A stretch of DNA of 64,000 nt from a virus (IMGVR_UViG_3300043466_001817:1-64000); one strand, 5' to 3'; positions 5,072 through 62,909 are shown, counted from the first letter of the stretch. Notes: generated by a model from the sequence alone, not told the origin. Made by a program: numbers and translations.

Positions 5072-6835
5072 ATGAAACATAAAATTTATTTTCTTTCAGG
5101 ATTACCAAGAAGTGGTTCTACTGTAGTATCTTCTATTTTAAATCAACATCCACAAATTTATTCAAGTTCAACTAGTGGATTAATTGATATAATGGGTGCC
5201 ATATGTATGGCATGGGAAGAATCCCCATCCACCATAGCACAATCTTCCAATAAAGAAGAAGTTTATAGAATATTAAGATCTACTATAGAGAGCAAATACG
5301 AATTAATAGATAAACAAATAATAATAGATAAAAACAGAGGTTGGGCAAATCCAACAATAATGGAAACAATAAAAAATGTTTTAGGTTATGAACCAAAAAT
5401 TATAGCAACTGTAAGGCATCCAGCAGATTGCACGGCTTCCTTTGTGCGAGTGGCAAAACCAGAAAATTTAGATAATTTTTTAAGAAATTCCGAATTAATA
5501 AAACATTTAAAATCATCTTATGCAACATTAAAAAATGGATTTGAAAATAAACCTAATAATTTTTGTTTTGTAGACTATGATGATTTTTTATTAAATCCAC
5601 AAAAAGAGATGGATAAAATTTGCAAATTTTTAGATATAGAATCATTTAATTTTGATTTTAATAATATTGATACGGAAGTTGTGTCTGAAAAAGATGAAGA
5701 GGCATGGGGTATACCAAATCTACACAAAATATCTCCAAAATTGGGAAAACAAAATAATCAAAATTCAAAAGACGTTTTAGGATATCAATATGATAATTTT
5801 GATCCTCCAAAATTTTGGAAAGGTGAAACACACAATAATGTAGAAAGAAAAAAAATAGACATATCCGTAGAATTATCAATGAAAGGTAATTTTGAAAAAT
5901 CATATGAAGTGATTTGTGAAGCAGCAAAAGAAAATCCTAATTGCAATAAAATTGCATTCAATATGGGGTGGTATGCTCTAAGACAAAATAAACTTCAAGA
6001 AGGAATGAATCTCCTTGCTAGAGGAAGATATGAAAATTGTTTTGGAAACCCAAAACCGGACGTTCCAACTCCAATATGGGATGGAAAAACTATAGGGACA
6101 GTTTTATATTATCTTGAAGGTGGTTTGGGAGATCAAATACATTCTTTAAAATACGTTGAAGATATTAATAAAAGGGGATGTGATGTAATTGTCGCATGTG
6201 CTCCAGAACTATTTTCCTTAGCTCGTTCATGTAAAGGTGTTAAAGTTGTATGTGAACAAAAAGCGGCTGGTGGAATATATCATGATTTTTGGGTACCGGG
6301 AATGTCAGTATTGATTCCTTTGGGGTATGAATATTGCGATATAAGTGGTAAACCATTCATACCAAGAACAAAGATAGTAAAAAATAAAAAACCAGTAATA
6401 GGAGTTAGATGGCAGGGAAATCCAAAATTTGAACACGAACAAAATAGAAAATTTCCTCTAGAACCATTCTTTAATGCATTAAAAAATATAGATGCAAATT
6501 TTATTTGTCTGCAAAGAGACGAAGGCGAAGAGCACTGCCCAGATTTTATTAAAAAGGTTTCTTTAAATAATTGGGAAGAAACAAGAGATGCAATCTCTAA
6601 TTGTGATTTAGTTATTAGTTCATGTACAAGTATTGCACATCTTGCGGCTGCAATGGGGGTAGAAACATGGATAATTATTCCTGTTTTGAACTATTATTTA
6701 TGGGGAGTTCCAGGCAATAAATCACCATTTTATGATTCATTGACTCTTTTTAGACAAGAAAAATTTGGTTGTTGGGAAGCACCTATAAATAAATTAAAAG
6801 TGCAATTACAGCATAAATACGGTGAGGAGAAATAA
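5072..6835 (+). CDS. Sulfotransferase + TPR-like + GT9-like glycosyltransferase fusion
   Basis: N-terminal SGLPRSGST PAPS-binding loop; C-terminal EGGLGDQI and DLVISSCTSIAHLAAAMG motifs of the GT-B/GT9 type. Confidence 0.8.
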   Translation: MKHKIYFLSGLPRSGSTVVSSILNQHPQIYSSSTSGLIDIMGAICMAWEESPSTIAQSSNKEEVYRILRSTIESKYELIDKQIIIDKNRGWANPTIMETIKNVLGYEPKIIATVRHPADCTASFVRVAKPENLDNFLRNSELIKHLKSSYATLKNGFENKPNNFCFVDYDDFLLNPQKEMDKICKFLDIESFNFDFNNIDTEVVSEKDEEAWGIPNLHKISPKLGKQNNQNSKDVLGYQYDNFDPPKFWKGETHNNVERKKIDISVELSMKGNFEKSYEVICEAAKENPNCNKIAFNMGWYALRQNKLQEGMNLLARGRYENCFGNPKPDVPTPIWDGKTIGTVLYYLEGGLGDQIHSLKYVEDINKRGCDVIVACAPELFSLARSCKGVKVVCEQKAAGGIYHDFWVPGMSVLIPLGYEYCDISGKPFIPRTKIVKNKKPVIGVRWQGNPKFEHEQNRKFPLEPFFNALKNIDANFICLQRDEGEEHCPDFIKKVSLNNWEETRDAISNCDLVISSCTSIAHLAAAMGVETWIIIPVLNYYLWGVPGNKSPFYDSLTLFRQEKFGCWEAPINKLKVQLQHKYGEEK

Positions 6836-6838
6836 AAA

Positions 6839-7261
6839 ATGGCAAAATTTGTAAGAATAGAAAATGATCAAATTATAGAATGTTTGGATTACCTTCCACA
6901 CAATCATCAAGGAGATTGGAGAGAAGCAATCGATATTGTACCACATCTAATCCCATTTAAACAAATACAAGGCCCACATTCATTTGATATATCAAAAACA
7001 CCAGTTGAAATTGTTTGGAGTGTAATTGATCTAACATTAGATGAAAGAAAACAAACTATTGTTAGTATTACAACAGGTGAACTTCAAAATGAAGTTGGGA
7101 AAGAATTAAATAAAGATTTATCAGATGCAAATCAAAATATAAATTTTCAACTAATAGAAAGTTTAGTTAATCAAATTAGAAGCAAAAAATTTGAAATTGA
7201 TGCAATTCAAACTCACGAAGAGATGGATCAGTATATCCAAAATAATAATATTGTGCCCTGA
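6839..7261 (+). CDS. Hypothetical protein, possibly a fibre-assembly chaperone
   Basis: 140-aa ORF tightly packed in the operon; function inferred from context only. Confidence 0.55.
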   Translation: MAKFVRIENDQIIECLDYLPHNHQGDWREAIDIVPHLIPFKQIQGPHSFDISKTPVEIVWSVIDLTLDERKQTIVSITTGELQNEVGKELNKDLSDANQNINFQLIESLVNQIRSKKFEIDAIQTHEEMDQYIQNNNIVP

Positions 7262-8649
7262 TGCGTATAGCGTTTACAATAATTCATAACGGACTACATC
7301 ACTTAAAACACAACAACCAAGCTCAAAATATTTTAAAATTTTGTGATAAATGGATTGTTGTAGAAGGTGCTGCAAAATCAAATGGCAGCACTCAGTGGTG
7401 TAAATCATTTCCAGAGCATTTGCATAATAACGGTGCAAGCATAGATGGTACTTGTGAGTTTTTAGAAGATTTATCTAAACAAACAGATAAATTGGTATAC
7501 ATTAAATCAAATGGATTTTGGAATTCTAAAGATGATCAGGTTAACAGAGCCATACAAGAAGTTAAAAAGATAACAGATAAATGTTTTCTTTGGGAGATAG
7601 ACGCAGACGAACAATGGACTTCGGAAGCGATGGATATCGCTGAGAAAGAATTGTCTGAACTTTCAGGTATATCTGCAACATTCAGAGCCGATTGTTATGT
7701 TGGCAAAAATTTAAAAGCATTAGGTGAGTGGGGAGAAGCAAAAAGTTGCGGATACATAAGACTCTGGAAATGGAGTGGACAAAACTTTATTTGCCACGAA
7801 CCTCCAATTTTAGAGGGCGCTGGAATGAATCCAGCAATGTTATCTCCTAGATTCAAACACTACAATTATTATTTTAAAAAAGATGTAATTTTTAAAGATC
7901 TTTGGTATGGTGGTCACGAAGGAATACTGGAACGATGGAAACTTTTAAATTCATTACATGAAAAGTTCTTTCCACTTCATATATCAAATCTTATTACTGG
8001 TGATTGGGGAAAATCCAGTGCTGCTATAATTTATTCTAATGAAGATGAAAGAAGAGTTGTACAGATTGGCGCCAATATAGGTTATGATGCTGTAAGTGCA
8101 TTTTTACTCTTAAACAAATGTTCATGTATTTTTGTAGAACCAAATCCATATGCGCTAGAAATACTTAAAGAATGTTATAAAGAAAATGACAATTATTATT
8201 TTGAAAACGTCGCAGTTTCAAATTATAATGGTTTGATAAACATGTATTTTAATGACATTGATTGTGTAAATTCTGATTCCGCTCATAGTTCAGTATCACT
8301 TAATCATGTAATAGCACATAAAGAAAACAATATGGAAAATATCACCACCAGATTGGTTTCTTGTGTTACAATTGAAAATTTGTTAAAGAAGTATGATTGG
8401 CTGGATAAAGATATAGAATATCTTGTAATGGACACCGAGGGACATGATTGCGATATAATTCTTTCTACAAATTTTAATAAATTGAAAGTAAAAAATGTCT
8501 GCTTTGAAATAACACATTCAGATGGTCCGTTTATTAATGGTAAAAAATTAGAGAAAACAATTGAATATTTAAATTCATTTGGATATAGAATGAACTCCAA
8601 CAGTTCAAATAATTGTAATGTTACTTTCACACTATGTGAAGAGGTTTAA
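7261..8649 (+). CDS. GT-A glycosyltransferase-like + FkbM-family methyltransferase fusion
   Basis: IVVEGA and EIDADE (DxD) motifs; C-terminal VQIGANIG, FVEPNP and MDTEGHD FkbM motifs. Confidence 0.75.
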   Translation: MRIAFTIIHNGLHHLKHNNQAQNILKFCDKWIVVEGAAKSNGSTQWCKSFPEHLHNNGASIDGTCEFLEDLSKQTDKLVYIKSNGFWNSKDDQVNRAIQEVKKITDKCFLWEIDADEQWTSEAMDIAEKELSELSGISATFRADCYVGKNLKALGEWGEAKSCGYIRLWKWSGQNFICHEPPILEGAGMNPAMLSPRFKHYNYYFKKDVIFKDLWYGGHEGILERWKLLNSLHEKFFPLHISNLITGDWGKSSAAIIYSNEDERRVVQIGANIGYDAVSAFLLLNKCSCIFVEPNPYALEILKECYKENDNYYFENVAVSNYNGLINMYFNDIDCVNSDSAHSSVSLNHVIAHKENNMENITTRLVSCVTIENLLKKYDWLDKDIEYLVMDTEGHDCDIILSTNFNKLKVKNVCFEITHSDGPFINGKKLEKTIEYLNSFGYRMNSNSSNNCNVTFTLCEEV

Positions 8650-9552
8650 ATGTTTATAGTTACTGGTGCTCAAGGATTTATTGGAAGTCGAATGGTAAAG
8701 TATCTCAATTCAAAGGGAATTGATGATATCTGTGTTATTGATGATGTTGAAATCGATGAAGTTAGAGGATATGCAACAAAAGTAAATTACACAAATTTAC
8801 AAGATACTAAATTTAAAAAACTTTATCCAATCATATTGGACGAAAATACTATATTGCCAGAAGACAATATAGAAGCAGTTTTTCATTTTGGTGCTATCTC
8901 CAATACATTAGAAAAAGACTTTGGTAAAATTAAAAAATACAATATTGATTATACATATCAATTGAACCGTGCATGTAAAAAAAGAAATATACCATTAATA
9001 TTCAGTTCTACTGCAGCAATTTATGGAAATGGAAATGGGCCATTAAATTTATATGCGGAATCCAAACTTCAAAATGAAAAAGATATATCAGACTATGCCA
9101 TGTGTTTCAGACTATTCAATGTATATGGTCCTAATGAATCACATAAAGGAAGAATGGCTTCAGTAATTTTTAAATGGTTCAATGAACTTAAAGAAACTAA
9201 CTCAATAAAGATATTTGAAAATTCAAAAGAATACAAAAGAGATTTTATTTTTGTAGATGATGTCTGCAAAACATTTTATAATGCTTACAAAAAATATAAG
9301 CCGGGAATTCGTGATCTTGGAACCGGAACACAAAATAATTTTGATTATGTTGCAGATATTGTAATAAAGGAATATGGTAGTGGAAATAAAAATTATGTAC
9401 CAATGCCAGACGATTTAAAATTACAGTATCAAACAAACACTGAAGCAAAAATTTATAATGATTTGGAATTAAATTTTATTAATATTGAAACCGGAATAAA
9501 AAATTACATTTCACATTTAAAAAATAATTTACTTGTTTCTTCCAATAATTAA
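8650..9552 (+). CDS. hldD: ADP-L-glycero-D-manno-heptose 6-epimerase (extended SDR)
   Basis: IVTGAQGFIGS Rossmann motif, YAESK catalytic motif and the HldD/RfaD-typical FNVYGPNESHKGRMASV. Confidence 0.85.
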   Translation: MFIVTGAQGFIGSRMVKYLNSKGIDDICVIDDVEIDEVRGYATKVNYTNLQDTKFKKLYPIILDENTILPEDNIEAVFHFGAISNTLEKDFGKIKKYNIDYTYQLNRACKKRNIPLIFSSTAAIYGNGNGPLNLYAESKLQNEKDISDYAMCFRLFNVYGPNESHKGRMASVIFKWFNELKETNSIKIFENSKEYKRDFIFVDDVCKTFYNAYKKYKPGIRDLGTGTQNNFDYVADIVIKEYGSGNKNYVPMPDDLKLQYQTNTEAKIYNDLELNFINIETGIKNYISHLKNNLLVSSNN

Positions 9553-9566
9553 GATATATTATAAAC

Positions 9567-10085
9567 ATGTTTCTAGAATATACAAAAGCACATCATACCG
9601 TTGTAGATCCAAATTTTCAAACCAAGATGGCAGCATGTTTTGATCTTGGGGCCTTCATCCCAGCAGATGAAGAAGTCAAAATTTACATTGGAAAGACCCA
9701 GATGTCTGCCAAGCCCCTGCACTGTGGGGAGCGGAATGAGCCCTACATCACCCTGATGCCCATGGAACGGGCTTTAATCCGCACAGGGATCACCTTTAAG
9801 ATCCCTGACGGATACTCCATACGCCTCCATCCACGCTCTGGAATGGCTTTAAAGTATGGTCTGACCCTTGCAAATTGTGAGGGTGTCGTGGACGAAGATT
9901 ACACCTTTGAGACCAAAATTATCATGCTTAACACCAGCAACGATCATGTTAAAATTTACAACAGGGATCGAATTGCTCAGGCTGAACTCGTTAAGTACGA
10001 ACAACCACGGTTCCTAGAGATCTTTGAAACGATCACCAAAGAATCAAATAGAAACGGTGGTTTTGGTTCTACTGGAGTAAACTAA
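9567..10085 (+). CDS. dut: Trimeric dUTPase
   Basis: PRSGMALK, GVVDEDY, RIAQ and RNGGFGSTG motifs. Confidence 0.95.
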   Translation: MFLEYTKAHHTVVDPNFQTKMAACFDLGAFIPADEEVKIYIGKTQMSAKPLHCGERNEPYITLMPMERALIRTGITFKIPDGYSIRLHPRSGMALKYGLTLANCEGVVDEDYTFETKIIMLNTSNDHVKIYNRDRIAQAELVKYEQPRFLEIFETITKESNRNGGFGSTGVN

Positions 10086-10101
10086 TAATACTTTTAAAGT
10101 A

Positions 10102-10722
10102 TTATCCACTTGTAACAATTTGCATAGTCAATATATTACTGCAAGCAATATTTGAATCAGTAACATTAAAAAGTCTAAAAGCTCCATCTGTCTGTGACAA
10201 TACAGTAGTTGCATTTGCAAAAATTTGTATAGTATCACCAGATGCAAATGTAACTGCTCCAGTTGATGTATTTTGTGCCCAAGTTGTCAAAATACCACCA
10301 TTTTTCTTATACTTAATTACTGTTGTATCGATACTTCCAGTAAGAATATCCCATTTTAAGGCAACTGCTGTAGAATTTCCAGAAATTGTAAAGGTTGGTG
10401 TTAGTGCAACATCACCCGAGAGATTGTCAATGTTTTGAGTAGTTGGAGAAAATGTTAGTGTATTTATTGTTGTTGGTGATGATGTAGGAAGAGTAGCGGC
10501 ATCTCCAGTTGCTGTTCCGTAATCCATCATGGCATACATGTCTTGGAATGCGATATTATTCATTTGCATGCCATTACTTGAATTAACCCAAGCATTCAAA
10601 TTATCATTCCAAGCAAAAGGGCCCATTGGAGTTGAAATGATCTTTGGACCATATCCTCTTGTTGGGACTACAGCCTCATTCATGGCTGTAAAAAATGTTT
10701 TCATTGTATCTTTGGCGCCCAT
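10102..10722 (-). CDS. Hypothetical Thr/Ser-rich virion-like protein
   Basis: 206-aa ORF with CTAAATA late-type promoter just upstream (about 10739-10745). Confidence 0.65.
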   Translation of the reverse strand: MGAKDTMKTFFTAMNEAVVPTRGYGPKIISTPMGPFAWNDNLNAWVNSSNGMQMNNIAFQDMYAMMDYGTATGDAATLPTSSPTTINTLTFSPTTQNIDNLSGDVALTPTFTISGNSTAVALKWDILTGSIDTTVIKYKKNGGILTTWAQNTSTGAVTFASGDTIQIFANATTVLSQTDGAFRLFNVTDSNIACSNILTMQIVTSG

Positions 10723-10741
10723 TAATATACCTCTGATATAT

Positions 10742-11380
10742 TTAGGATCTTCTGCGACGATTGGATGGCATTAAAAATAACGCACCAAGTGCAAGAACAC
10801 TTGGCCCCGGAATTACTACGTTTGCACCAAATCCGCAATCGTCAATGAAGTTTCCTTGGGTATTACCGCCAACTGCATTTACAGATTCAAATGCAAATCT
10901 TGTAAGATTTCCAATTGAAGTTACAGTACCTACGTGAAGCCCCCAAGCGGTATTTGAATCAGTAAATTCACCTTGGAATAATACGGTATCATCTCCACCA
11001 CCATATATTTGGTCTGCTCCAAGATCGGTAATTGTCAAACGCATTGTGTCTGTACCGTCTCTGCCACGGTGAGCAAACTTCCAATTTATCTGATTATTAT
11101 CTCCCAACCCATTTACATCTTGATATAAAGTTGATGCATAATTTGCATTCAATTCTGCAAAAGAGTTTCCTTCATATGCAGGAACTCCAAGAAATCCGTT
11201 TTCCCAAATTTCAAGAGTATTGTCTGGCGCTGTTGTGGCCCAGTTTACGGTTGGGCTTGAACCCGAATAAAAACCATACCCCCATACAGAAAAGTCTTCA
11301 AATCCACCGTTAACTAAATCCGCTTTAGCGGAGAATGAAAGTGTTAGTACAGCAATTACAGCAAGTAATTTTTTGAGCAT
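10742..11380 (-). CDS. Secreted protein with PEP-CTERM-like sorting signal
   Basis: Sec signal peptide (MLKKLLAVIAVLTLSFSAKA), DLVNGGFE jelly-roll-like start, C-terminus VIPGPSVLALGALFLMPSNRRRRS (Pro motif, TM, basic tail). Confidence 0.85.
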   Translation of the reverse strand: MLKKLLAVIAVLTLSFSAKADLVNGGFEDFSVWGYGFYSGSSPTVNWATTAPDNTLEIWENGFLGVPAYEGNSFAELNANYASTLYQDVNGLGDNNQINWKFAHRGRDGTDTMRLTITDLGADQIYGGGDDTVLFQGEFTDSNTAWGLHVGTVTSIGNLTRFAFESVNAVGGNTQGNFIDDCGFGANVVIPGPSVLALGALFLMPSNRRRRS

Positions 11381-12060
11381 TAATTTCTCTTTCTAGTATT
11401 GATAAGAGTGCCTAAAGTCAATACAGACATAGTTCCAGCATCTGGGACGCTTGTACCAGAAGCATTTAAACTACCATAACCATAATACTCACCAAATCCG
11501 TAATTGTTTCCTAGAGCAAGGGTTGTACTGTATACATCAAATGGTAGTGTGCTTGGTGTAAGGAATACAGCGAATGGGTCTGTAGGATTAAGTGTATTAG
11601 CATTTATTGGATCCATTGGTGTTAAATTTTGATTGTTTCCATAGTATACACTTTGAACTACAGATTGTGGTACTTGTGGTATAACAATTTCAGATTGTTT
11701 TTCTTGTTGTGGTTTCTTTTTTACCATAGCAAGAAGATCTGAATTTTTAAAATTTACTTGTTCTTCTTTTCCTTTTGGTAACTTTGGAGACCAAGGTCTT
11801 CCAATTATTCTATCATTTAAAGAAGTTTTGGTTGGCTCTTTTGTATCTTTTGCTGTCTTTCCATCTACAGCAGCCATAGCGCTGTTCATGGAATTTACAG
11901 TGGATATTACTGCTTTTGCCCCCTGCTCACCTAATAGGGTCAATGCAGCGGTACAAACTATAGTCAGCGTATATACCCTCTTTTGAAGGATCTTTACGCT
12001 TGCCTTTGCTTCATCGCAAACTTTAGCACAAGAATCGCAACCGTGAGAATGACTGTTCAT
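11380..12060 (-). CDS. Membrane protein with PEP-CTERM-like C-terminus
   Basis: C-terminus VPDAGTMSVLTLGTLINTRKRN; hydrophobic segment near residues 30-45. Confidence 0.65.
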   Translation of the reverse strand: MNSHSHGCDSCAKVCDEAKASVKILQKRVYTLTIVCTAALTLLGEQGAKAVISTVNSMNSAMAAVDGKTAKDTKEPTKTSLNDRIIGRPWSPKLPKGKEEQVNFKNSDLLAMVKKKPQQEKQSEIVIPQVPQSVVQSVYYGNNQNLTPMDPINANTLNPTDPFAVFLTPSTLPFDVYSTTLALGNNYGFGEYYGYGSLNASGTSVPDAGTMSVLTLGTLINTRKRN

Positions 12061-12125: not shown

Positions 12126-12428
12126 TTAGGTTTGTGTCTTTTCTTCCTGAATTACTGGGACTTCCTTTGCGGGAGTTCCGGGTTCTGCTTCGATGCAGTT
12201 TACAGGCTTTAGAACGAATGTTCTGACACCCCACATAAGAGCAATTACTGCAACTGGTCCGTACCAGAAGAGCCAACCATAAGATTCGATTTGTGCTCCG
12301 GGTTCTGCAATTTTATCCTTTAGTGCCATCATTACAACATTGTCTGATGTATGATCTGGGATGATGACTGGATCAGAGCTGCAGCCAGCGAGAAGAATCA
12401 TTGAAATTAGAAATAGAAATAGTCTCAT
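12126..12428 (-). CDS. Lipoprotein with an additional TM helix
   Basis: Lipobox LLAG-C at residue 16; TM segment WLFWYGPVAVIALMWGV. Confidence 0.7.
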   Translation of the reverse strand: MRLFLFLISMILLAGCSSDPVIIPDHTSDNVVMMALKDKIAEPGAQIESYGWLFWYGPVAVIALMWGVRTFVLKPVNCIEAEPGTPAKEVPVIQEEKTQT

Positions 12429-12438
12429 GGTTCACTCC

Positions 12439-12876
12439 TTATGATTTATTGTTGGCTGCTGCGGAGCCAAAGTAGAATCCTACGATGCTTAGAAGAACTT
12501 CACGGTTCTCTGATGTCCAGAAGAATCCATTAATTTCTACGAATGCTTTCTTTGCAGATGCTGGGATCAAACCAAACAATGCTTCTGAATTTTTGACATC
12601 AACTTCTACGAAAGTAGGAACGCCAAAGAAGGGAAGAATGAAAGGTGCTGCGAAAGCTCCGAATAGAACGACGAGTACGATGATTTGACGAACAACTCTG
12701 CCTGCATCAAGGGGAACTCTTTGAGCTGCTTGATTTTGATTTTCAGTTGTTTGTTTGTTTGCTTGGATGAGCCGTTCGAACATTTCCTTTTGATCTTGGC
12801 TCTTTTGTGCCATATAACGAAAAAGAAATCCCGTTGCCCCACCACCTACCATGCTAATCAATTCTGGTGAAAACAT
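12439..12876 (-). CDS. Multi-TM membrane protein (holin-like candidate)
   Basis: Hydrophobic segments and C-terminal IVGFYFGS, a motif seen in 3TM phage holin-like proteins. Confidence 0.55.
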   Translation of the reverse strand: MFSPELISMVGGGATGFLFRYMAQKSQDQKEMFERLIQANKQTTENQNQAAQRVPLDAGRVVRQIIVLVVLFGAFAAPFILPFFGVPTFVEVDVKNSEALFGLIPASAKKAFVEINGFFWTSENREVLLSIVGFYFGSAAANNKS

Positions 12877-12886
12877 AATCTATACC

Positions 12887-13486
12887 TCAATTCTTTTGAT
12901 ATGAAAGTTGCAATTCAATCGAAGCACGAATATTTTCAAAGTGATTCATTAAAATTTCTTCTTGAGCCAAATTTGGCATATAATCTTTATGCCATTGGAT
13001 CAATACGAATCCGACATTGATGTTTTTATTTTTTACTGGAAGACATGCAATGTGTGAAACAAATTCATCTTCAAAGAAGTGTTTTGAATGACTGTTATCT
13101 GGCATTGCGGCAACGCTAAAAATTAATGGCTTGTTTTCTACTACTCTGACAAGAAGAGGAATGAACAAAGAGCATAGAGAGGATTTTAATTTATTTGCTT
13201 GGGATGCATACCCTTTGTGAATAGATTCATGGGTTGTGGAGAACTTTTTCATGGAAATTCCATCCATGGTATATTCACCATTATGGAATTGAATAAGCAT
13301 AGTTCTCATTGCGTGGCTTGTTAGACGAAGTTCAGTCAAAAGTTCATTTATTTCGCTGTGAATTAGAATAAAATTGTCAGTCTTTTTCTTAGACTTCCAA
13401 AATTTTTTAATTCCAAGACCTAGGCCCAATAACCCGGCAACTGCAAGACCTATATCCTCTGCTAATTTTATGAAATCTGACATCAA
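12887..13486 (-). CDS. Single-TM protein with GAF-like domain (T4 holin T-like architecture)
   Basis: N-terminal TM, then FHNG...G...K.S.THE and C-terminal LPV...VGFVLIQW GAF-like strands; TATAAATA upstream (13502-13509, minus strand). Confidence 0.5.
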   Translation of the reverse strand: MMSDFIKLAEDIGLAVAGLLGLGLGIKKFWKSKKKTDNFILIHSEINELLTELRLTSHAMRTMLIQFHNGEYTMDGISMKKFSTTHESIHKGYASQANKLKSSLCSLFIPLLVRVVENKPLIFSVAAMPDNSHSKHFFEDEFVSHIACLPVKNKNINVGFVLIQWHKDYMPNLAQEEILMNHFENIRASIELQLSYQKN

Positions 13487-13547
13487 AACTCCCTGTCTGA
13501 ATATTTATATCTTGACGAAGCCGTATTATGGGGTATATTGGTCATCT

Positions 13548-13874
13548 ATGATGACCCGAGAACAACTATTTGAATTACACCAAAATATCTGCACAGAAGC
13601 CCTAGAATTGATGCGTAAGAAGAACAATGATTACGCAAACGGATTTGATCCGTTCCTAAATTTTAGACGAGCAGAATATCTTGGATTTTCTACCGCAGAA
13701 CTAGGTGTCCTTATCAGAATGACAGATAAGATGTCAAGAATTTCAACATTCCTGAACAAGGGCGAACTTTCTTTGCAAAATGAGAGTGTCCAAGATGCGA
13801 TTGTTGACATAATTAACTACAGTGTTATACTTGCTGGTCTGCTGAAGGACAAGGACGACAAGAAGGCTTCATGA
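13548..13874 (+). CDS. DUF1599-like (nucleotide-modification-associated) protein
   Basis: KKNNDY...F.NF, IRMTDKMSRI and ESVQDAIVDIINY motifs. Start reassigned to 13548, downstream of TTGACG-N16-TATATT. Confidence 0.75.
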   Translation: MMTREQLFELHQNICTEALELMRKKNNDYANGFDPFLNFRRAEYLGFSTAELGVLIRMTDKMSRISTFLNKGELSLQNESVQDAIVDIINYSVILAGLLKDKDDKKAS

Positions 13875-36775: not shown

Positions 36776-37113
36776 ACACCCCTTTCGGGGTGCGGGTCGA
36801 TTCAGATGCGGGAGACCAAACCCCACTGCTTCAAGCAGCCATTGCCATAGGTGCGGCAATCAATTTTTGCAACGGTTTATTTACGACACTTGTTACCCGT
36901 GTCGGGCATCTCCTTCTTCAATACTCTGCGCCAATCGAAGCCAGTTCAGCCCCTAGATCCCGAAGCCTAGGACTTCGGGGATTGCCCCCTGCAAGAGGAC
37001 TTGACTCGCCATCTCTAATAGATTTGCAGAATCTATTTCGGTTAGGCTAATGGAGCCGAGGGGAATCGAACCCCTGTGTTGTTCGCATTTCTATCCGATA
37101 TCAACAATACCAA
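36776..37113 (-). ncRNA. ssrA: Circularly permuted (two-piece) tmRNA
   Basis: Acceptor piece first (T-arm AGGGG-TTCGATT-CCCCT, then CGGCTCC-A ending at 37051), 97-nt intervening segment, then coding piece starting GGGGCTG at 36953. G3:U70 pair, pk1, and tag frame 36857-36831 reading AAPMAMAA-stop. Confidence 0.9.
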
Positions 37114-44463: not shown

Positions 44464-44904
44464 TTAGTCTTTTTGCCAGTTGTTCAGAATCCAACTTGAA
44501 GAGTTCTTCTTATCTTCTCCACCGACACCGAACATGAATGAAAGATTAATATCATGATAATCCATCTCAGGAATGTTTTTTCCGTTCCTATCTCCGCCGT
44601 TGGCGAAGATAATGTGAGCATCGGGATACATCATTCTGACTTTATGAATAGCATCCTTTGCGCTGCCATCGTCATCATTGAATTCAATGACTTCATCAAC
44701 ACCCTTGATGTGCTTGATGATCGTGGCTCTTTCATTGAACGGCAAGAAACTCTTGCCCTTCTTTCTTACGAGCCATGCGTCGGAATTGACACCAACGATT
44801 AGATAGGTTCCATGACTACGAGCAGCAGCAATGTATGCAATGTGTCCGCTGTGAATGGGATCAAAGCCACCAGTAATCAAAACAATAGTCATGTTCTTGC
44901 TCAT
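44464..44904 (-). CDS. Cytidylyltransferase-family (HIGH) nucleotidyltransferase, RfaE-II/TagD-like
   Basis: TGGFDPIHSGH, VGVNSD, FANGGDR and KNSSS motifs. Confidence 0.88.
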   Translation of the reverse strand: MSKNMTIVLITGGFDPIHSGHIAYIAAARSHGTYLIVGVNSDAWLVRKKGKSFLPFNERATIIKHIKGVDEVIEFNDDDGSAKDAIHKVRMMYPDAHIIFANGGDRNGKNIPEMDYHDINLSFMFGVGGEDKKNSSSWILNNWQKD

Positions 44905-44916
44905 GTAAATCTCCAA

Positions 44917-44990
44917 TGACCCCACCGAGAATCGAACTCGGAGTCTTCTCCTTGAAAGGGAGACGATTTAGCCACTTAATCTATGGGGCC
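44917..44990 (-). tRNA. tRNA-Glu(TTC)
   Basis: tctcc-ct-TTC-aa-ggaga anticodon arm. Confidence 0.92.
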
Positions 44991-44996
44991 TTTATA

Positions 44997-45440
44997 TTAT
45001 TTAATGCGCTTTCTTCCGTATGCAAACGCAGAAGCAATCACAATCAAAGCTGCGCCAGCAGGAGAAGGACAATCGTTTCCACGACCACACTGATTTGGAT
45101 CTATTCCACCGAAAGGCATCGTGATGCTTTCAATGCGATCATGCTGCACAGGAATGGCAAAGTCCTGATTCACCATCTGAATGGTGCAAACAAGATTGTT
45201 ATGGTTGTAGATCTTGTATATCCAATAGCCATCAGCCTTGCCCATGAATAGATTGTTACCGACAATCGACGCAGGAACCGTAGGAGGATTGATTGCCTCC
45301 GTGGTAGGCGTAGGCATTGTGTATGCCGTATCAAAGGTCAGAGGATTGTCGAAGTGTTCACCGAGGTAAGTAGAACCCTGATAAACGGAACGGTCAATAA
45401 CCTGACCGGGCATATAAAGAGTAGACACAGAAGTAAGCAT
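44997..45440 (-). CDS. Protein with PEP-CTERM-like C-terminus
   Basis: C-terminus CPSPAGAALIVIASAFAYGRKRIK; no clear signal peptide. Confidence 0.6.
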   Translation of the reverse strand: MLTSVSTLYMPGQVIDRSVYQGSTYLGEHFDNPLTFDTAYTMPTPTTEAINPPTVPASIVGNNLFMGKADGYWIYKIYNHNNLVCTIQMVNQDFAIPVQHDRIESITMPFGGIDPNQCGRGNDCPSPAGAALIVIASAFAYGRKRIK

Positions 45441-62517: not shown

Positions 62518-62570
62518 CTACTATCAGGCCGTCCAATAAAATCAAGATCGCCGGGCGATCTTGATAGTAG
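62518..62570. repeat. Early-region palindromic element, copy 6
   Basis: CTACTATCAGG...atcaagatcgcc-g-ggcgatcttgat-AGTAG. Confidence 0.92.
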
Positions 62571-62642
62571 CCCACAAACAACCTAGCCCCGAGCTAATCG
62601 GGGCAGGGACGAATCCTCTTCGGTTGTAAGAGCACCACCTCT

Positions 62643-62909
62643 TTAGTCTGTGGCCGGTGCGAGTGCCGCCTCCTGTCCGACGCGGATTCCTGCGCGGAAT
62701 GCGTGGATCAGTTCCAGCAGTTCCCGCTTGCTGCGGTAGCCGGGGAAGATGGCGATGCAGGCTCCGTGGGGGCCGACGAGTTGCTGTAGTTGCCATCCGC
62801 CGTATGCGCCCTGGAGGTAGTACGCACCTGGCGTGGCAGCGGTCGCCCCGACGAGTTGGTTCAGGACGCGGGTGGCGGCTTCAAGGTCGCGGATCGTGGT
62901 GTGCTTCAT
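62643..62909 (-). CDS. Hypothetical early protein
   Basis: Y.L.GAYGGWQL...GYRSKREL motif; leaderless start. Confidence 0.7.
   Translation of the reverse strand: MKHTTIRDLEAATRVLNQLVGATAATPGAYYLQGAYGGWQLQQLVGPHGACIAIFPGYRSKRELLELIHAFRAGIRVGQEAALAPATD

Follow-up and report, generated by a model that had tools for sequence, protein, structure and literature searches.

Sorting by means of PEP-CTERM tails and exosortases is widespread in environmental bacteria, and its biochemistry is barely known. The locus described here raises the question as to whether a phage makes use of the same kind of tail for proteins of its own. The stretch of DNA analysed, hereafter the window, covers positions 1-64,000 of an IMG/VR virus record that is 94,095 bp long and, by the CheckV estimate, ~50% complete. 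A preliminary description had attributed PEP-CTERM-like C-termini to three proteins encoded in it and proposed that they are handled by the exosortase of the infected host. The corresponding ORFs, A (10742-11380), B (11380-12060) and C (44997-45440), all lie on the minus strand, the C-termini quoted for them are exact, and each of these consists of a proline motif followed by ~14 hydrophobic residues and then by a basic cluster. Judged from sequence, there is a real and conserved phage cassette that carries a variant of the PEP-CTERM tag without Glu; the reading to which we give slightly better than even chances is that the phage makes A, B and C as envelope proteins with a diverged PEP-CTERM sorting tail.

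The Source Phage and Its Lineage

The source phage is a T4-like myovirus, with tail-fibre genes, a ribonucleotide reductase and nine tRNAs among its genes. Its gp43-type DNA polymerase is 42% identical to those of Synechococcus myoviruses, and its gp41-type helicase is 55-56% identical to those of cyanomyoviruses and of the OM43 phage Melnitz. It encodes a circularly permuted tmRNA (36831-37111, minus strand; RF04321, 64.4 bits), which is also present in one related record (G002:C1:86478-86771), with weaker matches in two further records. Megablast finds no DNA-level match to cultured phages, and two large ORFs from the 30 kb of the record outside the window, one of them taken as a baseplate gene, have no tblastn match in cultured phages; the phage thus represents a deep, uncultured lineage. 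It is an uncultured water phage whose lineage is abundant in freshwater. A GC-rich early island (52-63% GC) extends over positions 52000-64500.

Architecture and Relatives of Protein A

ORF A (10742-11380, minus strand) encodes 212 residues made of a signal peptide, a jelly roll of the CBM4/DUF642 type and a Glu-less tail of the PEP-CTERM type. The clean signal peptide that had been noticed on one of the genes is that of A; it is of the textbook Sec type (residues 1-20, 11321-11380, minus strand; MLKKLLAVIAVLTLSFSAKA) and is followed by DLVNGGFE, with an AKA-DL cleavage site whose predicted -1 residue, Ala20, is invariant in 27 homologues. The mature β-jelly-roll (residues 21-188, 10817-11320, minus strand) is CBM4-2/CBM22/HpiC1-like and is modelled by AlphaFold2 with a pLDDT of about 90, the values for the whole of A being a pLDDT of 82 and a pTM of 0.77. 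The modelled fold matches CBM4-2 (2y6k) with a Foldseek probability of 1.00, an E-value of 1.7e-6 and a TM-score of 0.5-0.7. No Pfam or NCBIfam domain matches A; according to the model, its body is a jelly roll of the CBM4-2/CBM22/HpiC1, sugar-binding type. The protein ends in the tail VIPGPSVLALGALFLMPSNRRRRS (10745-10816, minus strand), where P-x-P-[GS] is followed by 14 residues and RRRR.

A first search returned 255 homologues of A. Those listed, 120 in number, show 59% identity or more and lengths of 191-220 residues; nearly all of them are unnamed metagenomic sequences, one bearing the NCBI name 'PEP-CTERM sorting domain-containing protein'. A is encoded in 39 IMG/VR loci on contigs of up to 157 kb, and the contigs that bear the cassette vary widely in size, reaching 406 kb. 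Among 185,579 species genomes A was found once, on a 9.5-kb contig of a Bacteroidota MAG in which no exosortase was found and where this contig is probably a mis-binned phage contig. With the viral loci on one side and a single MAG contig among all these genomes on the other, the A branch is in effect phage-only. In cultured phages, tblastn with A finds only four unannotated 'Listeria phage' records (34%), which are possibly contaminant contigs. One homologue, at 10001-10940 of a 145-kb record (L039), looks frameshifted or broken, its match lying in pieces without a tail. PHROGs hold no family for A, B or C, nor for X, the ORF that ends the operon described below.

The wider family is much larger and comprises 2816 relatives in a profile search of 1.84 billion representatives. 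The A-type domain is found in giant adhesin-like proteins with LPXTG-like or T9SS-like ends, and also in many proteins of 220-250 residues that combine a signal peptide with a canonical VPEPS...RRRR tail; six of the ten distant cellular homologues tested pass TIGR02595. A is 44% identical over residues 5-211 to the bacterial protein P0132 (29.3 bits on TIGR02595, against a cut-off of 16), and the two tails align in register (VIPG---PSVLAL...RRRR in A over PPGVPEPSAVAL...RRRR). Another distant homologue, P0212, reaches 30.5 bits on the choice-of-anchor C model, whose cut-off is 120. The neighbours of A in the protein atlas are clusters with PEP-CTERM (PF07589) or VPDSG-CTERM tails, partly with DUF642, CBM_4_9 or HpiC1-like domains. 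The alignments demonstrate the descent of A from a predicted bacterial exosortase cargo composed of signal peptide, CBM-like jelly roll and PEP-CTERM tail. The jelly-roll module itself seems to be common to large surface proteins of the adhesin or toxin type; 15 of 27 A homologues weakly match the MARTX N-terminal model NF012221 at positions ~1460-1590 (best E 8e-7).

Conservation of the A Tail and Loss of the Glutamate

Compared with A of the window, the 120 listed of the 255 homologues are on average 74% identical in the mature domain, 41% in the signal peptide and 35% in the helix and basic part of the tail. In the same 120 sequences P191 is kept in all, P193 in 114, Gly or Ser at position 194 in 119 and R210 in 115, and the spacing between motif and basic cluster has a mode of 14 in the family. 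By this comparison the P-x-P-G motif is under selection, and something presumably still reads it, since a plain membrane anchor would not need the motif. The residue between the two prolines is A, G, S or T, and Glu is absent from 119 of the 120 listed copies. The Glu of PEP has been described as 'nearly invariant' in PEP-CTERM proteins (Haft 2006, PMC1569441), the study from which the defining features used here for membership tests are taken; with Glu missing, an exosortase may not recognise these tails.

The loss of Glu from 119 of the 120 listed copies favours a simpler reading, according to which the tails are by now mere C-terminal membrane anchors. A would then sit on the inner membrane, facing the periplasm and without any processing by exosortase, where it might, for example, bind a periplasmic or nascent glycan or block DNA entry in the manner of T4 Imm and Sp. 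The occurrence of the cassette on contigs of such different sizes, up to 406 kb, points the same way, as it may work in hosts whatever their sortase. Against it stands the P-x-P-G motif, superfluous for a plain anchor and yet near-invariant while the helix drifts to 35% identity, and we hold this reading to be rather unlikely. The consistent replacement of Glu, with both prolines and the helix geometry kept, is also the pattern of a substrate mimic, so the Glu-less tails could be decoys that bind the host exosortase without turnover and block both the host's PEP-CTERM display and the assembly of its slime layer. This idea is purely inferential, a decoy would not need a jelly roll as strongly conserved as that of A (74% mean identity), and members with PEP persist in the B and C families; of the readings weighed here, we regard it as the least probable.

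Proteins B and C and the Tails as a Set

ORF B (11380-12060, minus strand) encodes 226 residues that comprise a Cys/His knuckle, a transmembrane helix, a low-complexity linker, the sequence GFGEYYG and the tail. The N-terminal motif H-x-H-G-C-x2-C-x3-C (12016-12051, minus strand) is kept across the family and may bind zinc. The transmembrane helix (residues 29-45, 11926-11976, minus strand) is a signal-anchor preceded by 28 predicted cytoplasmic, Cys-rich residues, and an ordinary signal peptide is absent. The tail of B, VPDAGTMSVLTLGTLINTRKRN (11383-11448, minus strand), is of the VPDAGT type and only moderately hydrophobic; the nearest relatives have VPEAG in place of VPDAG, and other members have PDP, PSPS, PSSG or a true PEP. 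The 72 homologues of B are all unnamed and without Pfam domains, come from the same types of contig as those of A, and invariably possess the knuckle, the helix, a variable linker, GFGEYYG and the tail.

ORF C (44997-45440, minus strand) encodes 147 residues without a signal peptide, ending in CPSPAGAALIVIASAFAYGRKRIK (45000-45071); its AlphaFold2 model (pLDDT 48) is unusable. It has 13 homologues and three more from the viral loci. An N-terminal hydrophobic segment or export signal is absent from every member, which places C outside the canonical PEP-CTERM architecture. Both prolines of the tail are invariant in the family, three members having PEP and one PDP. In P0362, which is 90% identical to C of the window, the whole tail is replaced by one of the PEP type (CPEPATGMLIALSGAVLFGRKRKN versus CPSPAGAALIVIASAFAYGRKRIK), so that the C tail behaves as an exchangeable module. 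This interchange of PEP and Glu-less tails on 90%-identical proteins suggests that the two are recognised as the same type of signal, and it speaks against the tails being plain anchors. A bolder reading takes the Glu-less P-x-P-G as a phage-specific exosortase tag, either a private sorting code or a mimic that resists cleavage and jams the enzyme; it appears improbable to us, and would, if true, mean that phages swap PEP and Glu-less tails as modules, thereby matching or subverting different hosts. No cellular relatives of B or C were found. C adjoins a cytidylyltransferase-like gene (44464-44925, minus strand; PHROG label heptose 1-phosphate adenylyltransferase), and the same gene lies a few kb from A in three loci (L014, L029 and L030).

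The spacing from motif to basic cluster is 14 residues in both A and B, and the three tails end in RRRRS (A), RKRN (B) and RKRIK (C). Their motifs are PGP in A, PDA in B and PSP in C, no tail of the window having PEP. A regular expression for such tails (P, 1-3 residues, 11-20 hydrophobic residues and a basic C-terminus), run over the 423 ORFs of at least 50 residues in the 94-kb record, matches A, B, C and one further ORF, at 62542-62796 in the GC-rich island, which is probably spurious. The tail is present in 72 of 72 B homologues and in 14 of 14 aligned C members; this family-wide conservation and the rarity of the pattern argue that the tails are not due to chance.

Similar tails end two more proteins, one at 13184-13864 (minus strand; VVPSPGTFALALCSCALGSNRRRK) of locus L020 and one at 10689-11699 (minus strand; AVPAPGALALLGLAGIVGRRRR) of locus L023, the N-terminus being signal-peptide-like in the former and not in the latter. 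Neither is matched by A, B or C in tblastn of the loci, which indicates that the tagged repertoire of the lineage exceeds these three. The lineage has retained three tagged families, with at least one further tagged secreted protein in relatives, and in some relatives one of the tagged proteins surpasses the DNA polymerase in conservation. This retention, with one family above the conservation of DNA polymerase, points to strong selection on phage-directed changes of the envelope.

Scores on Sorting-Signal Models

If the tails of the window were ordinary sorting signals they might be expected to score as such, a check that the preliminary description had itself put forward, and none does: whether as whole proteins or as tails alone, A, B and C stay below every curated cut-off of Pfam and NCBIfam, among them those of TIGR02595 (16 bits), MYXO-CTERM (TIGR03901; 20) and VPDSG-CTERM (TIGR03778/PF18205; 22 and 25). 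The three tails have no match at all to TIGR02595 or PF07589. The best match of the A tail is MYXO-CTERM at 14.3-14.5 bits (cut-off 20), through its helix and basic part only. The B tail reaches 13.6 and 15.2 bits on VPDSG-CTERM (cut-offs 22 and 25), over model positions 1-12 or 1-13 only. The C tail has a sub-threshold match to the LPXTG anchor at 12.2 bits (cut-off 20) and no sorting-signal model above its cut-off. These low scores are a further point in favour of the tails being no more than membrane anchors.

The families present a different picture. When 50 phage tails were scanned alone, TIGR02595 matched 20 (best E 5.4e-4) and PF07589 matched 17, far above the other sorting models; VPDSG-CTERM matched one. 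The assignment to the PEP-CTERM type therefore stands for the families, through these 20 and 17 matches and through the end-to-end alignment of A with bacterial proteins that pass TIGR02595, whereas it fails for the tails of the window themselves, which lie under the cut-offs. The same holds for the description of A, B and C as PEP-CTERM-like proteins when their architecture is considered, as Glu is missing from A, an ordinary signal peptide from B and any signal peptide from C.

The Operon m3-m2-m1-B-A-X

A and B lie within a minus-strand operon of membrane proteins in the order m3-m2-m1-B-A-X. The genes of B and A overlap (TAATG at 11380) and clearly form what, from the gene layout, is a predicted translationally coupled unit. 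In most of the 39 viral loci B is directly upstream of A, mostly with m2-m1; in several loci A occurs without B and in a different gene order. The first gene, m3 (12887-13483, minus strand; 198 residues, phrog_14038), has an N-terminal transmembrane helix. It is followed by m2 (12439-12876, minus strand; phrog_38283), a membrane protein of 145 residues that is 70-88% conserved in relatives, and by m1 (12126-12428, minus strand), in whose 100 residues a lipobox (LLAGC) is combined with a C-terminal transmembrane helix. This layout is that of a unimolecular spanin, the periplasmic part being only ~35-40 residues long. The sole homologue of m2 in cultured phages is gp28 of Verrucomicrobia phage P8625 (29% identity, E 6e-10; L042 20423-20797), which is placed after the tail genes and beside a 53-residue one-helix protein; P8625 has no PEP-CTERM-type tails.

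An TATAAATA box (13502-13509, minus strand), the T4 late-promoter consensus, stands 19 nt upstream of the m3 ATG. Of the relatives, just the closest (L001, L002, L007 and L006) retain the box, and the window contains no excess of the motif (five found versus 3.2 expected), for which reasons late expression of the operon is only a suggestion. All five boxes (6784, 13502, 31131, 40102 and 40649) are followed, at 6-75 nt, by the start of an ORF on the same strand.

These features bear on another reading, in which the operon is a late module for envelope disruption or accessory to lysis, B and m1 acting as spanin-like tethers, the former through its inner-membrane helix at one end and a sorted tail at the other, the latter as a lipoprotein with a transmembrane helix, and A as an accessory glycan binder. 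The box ahead of the operon, three membrane proteins transcribed together with B and A, the spanin-like layout of m1 and the position of the m2 homologue in P8625 would all suit such a module, a place after the tail genes being usual for lysis genes. It is nevertheless very unlikely in our estimation: the operon has no endolysin, the periplasmic part of m1 is short, the box is confined to the closest relatives and scarcely exceeds expectation, and A is found in several loci without B and in another order.

The last gene of the operon, X (10102-10722, minus strand; 206 residues), has no export signal and no family match. In L001, L002 and L007 its identity drops to 73%, against 96-100% for the neighbouring genes, which gives X the appearance of a hotspot where sequences diversify or are replaced. 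A block of glycan-modifying genes (5072-9552, plus strand) also adjoins the operon and encodes a 587-residue sulfotransferase, a methyltransferase with an FkbM domain and an NAD-dependent sugar epimerase. The block is missing in the near-identical relatives L001 and L007 and is thus a variable island; it was considered as part of the tagged-protein system and rejected, since the relatives do not keep it.

Exosortase and Host

Co-occurrence with an exosortase in one organism is the genomic hallmark of the PEP-CTERM system. The window holds no exosortase gene, as had been stated, and none is found when the search is extended to all 94,095 bp of the record and to four related ones (55-83% complete). 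The absence of an exosortase from all five phage records examined is another point on the side of plain anchors; if the tails are sorting signals, as we favour, the enzyme would be that of the host.

The host can be approached through gene content and codon usage. The record and the four related ones (together 50-83% complete) lack psbA and CsgG. A cyanophage, and with it a cyanobacterial host, is unlikely given five records without psbA; an identity with the Pelagimyophage or Melnitz type is likewise unlikely without CsgG, and the permuted tmRNA common to that group does not fix the host. In the AT-rich genes of the phage, AGA accounts for 64% of Arg codons and AUA for 36% of Ile codons, and the phage tRNAs read these codons; the GC-rich early island avoids them (AGA 6% of Arg, AUA 8% of Ile). 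By the usual reasoning, phage tRNAs that serve the codons of AT-rich genes suggest a GC-rich host. The leads to a particular phylum conflict: the m2 homologue in P8625 and the VPDSG-CTERM half-match of the B tail are weak hints of Verrucomicrobiota (PVC), the atlas match of the A tail alone (0.89, below the trusted level) leads to Cyanobacteriota, and that of the whole of A leads to Pseudomonadota. The PVC host proposed in the preliminary description, which had named PGP- and PAP-type variants as abundant in Planctomycetota and notably Phycisphaerae, is one candidate among these.

Proposed Mechanism

Processing of the A, B and C tags through a host exosortase is the mechanism that we infer to be the most likely. 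A would be exported by Sec and its signal peptide cut after Ala20; an enzyme of the exosortase family supplied by the host would then cut A at its tail, so that its sugar-binding domain arrives at the outer surface or in the slime layer. There the domain may bind a glycan, and the likely use of A would be to mask a receptor, to exclude superinfection or to spare the progeny from adsorbing to debris. B would remain tethered through its N-terminal helix, and C, which has no export signal, bears the same tag as the other two.

Comparison with Known Systems

No account of PEP-CTERM proteins carried by phages emerged from full-text searches of the literature; the nearest case among the results is a preprint in which a mobile element of Dehalococcoides is noted to have a PEP-CTERM domain. 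The consistent loss of an 'invariant' Glu offers a natural set of variants for the study of exosortase recognition, and the tag may become a host marker for uncultured phages.

The phage proteins share with the PEP-CTERM/exosortase system (EpsH, XrtA; PMC1569441; TIGR02595, PF07589) the proline motif at the extreme C-terminus, the stretch of ~14 hydrophobic residues and the Arg/Lys cluster, as well as the signal peptide of A, the presence of several instances per genome and the full-length homology of A to proteins that pass TIGR02595. They differ in being encoded by a lytic-type T4-like phage without an exosortase of its own, in the replacement of Glu, in scores below the cut-offs and in the signal-anchor of B and lack of a signal peptide in C. 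Closest to A are bacterial proteins that join a signal peptide, a DUF642/CBM4_9/HpiC1-like domain and a PEP-CTERM tail (for example P0132, P0159 and P0212; related to choice-of-anchor C, TIGR04362). They have its length class, its domain and its mature start ADLVNGGFE, and their tail, too, follows the last strand, GNFID..FG. The phage branch, in contrast, is tight (the 120 listed members at least 59% identical), carries P-[AGST]-P-G instead of PEP and is found almost only on viral contigs.

In B, VPDAGT resembles the VPDSG of the VPDSG-CTERM proteins of Verrucomicrobiota (TIGR03778, PF18205), and atlas clusters of this phylum combine VPDSG-CTERM with DUF642 or CBM_4_9; unlike these proteins, B matches only the first 12-13 positions of the model, under the cut-offs. 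With regard to function, T5 Llp and T4 Imm and Sp are phage-encoded envelope proteins that alter the surface of the infected cell. Like them, A, B and C would be exported or membrane proteins made by a phage, with no role in the virion and plausibly acting on receptors or entry; there is no relation in sequence or fold, and Llp, Imm and Sp use lipoprotein or plain signal sequences and no tag of the exosortase type.
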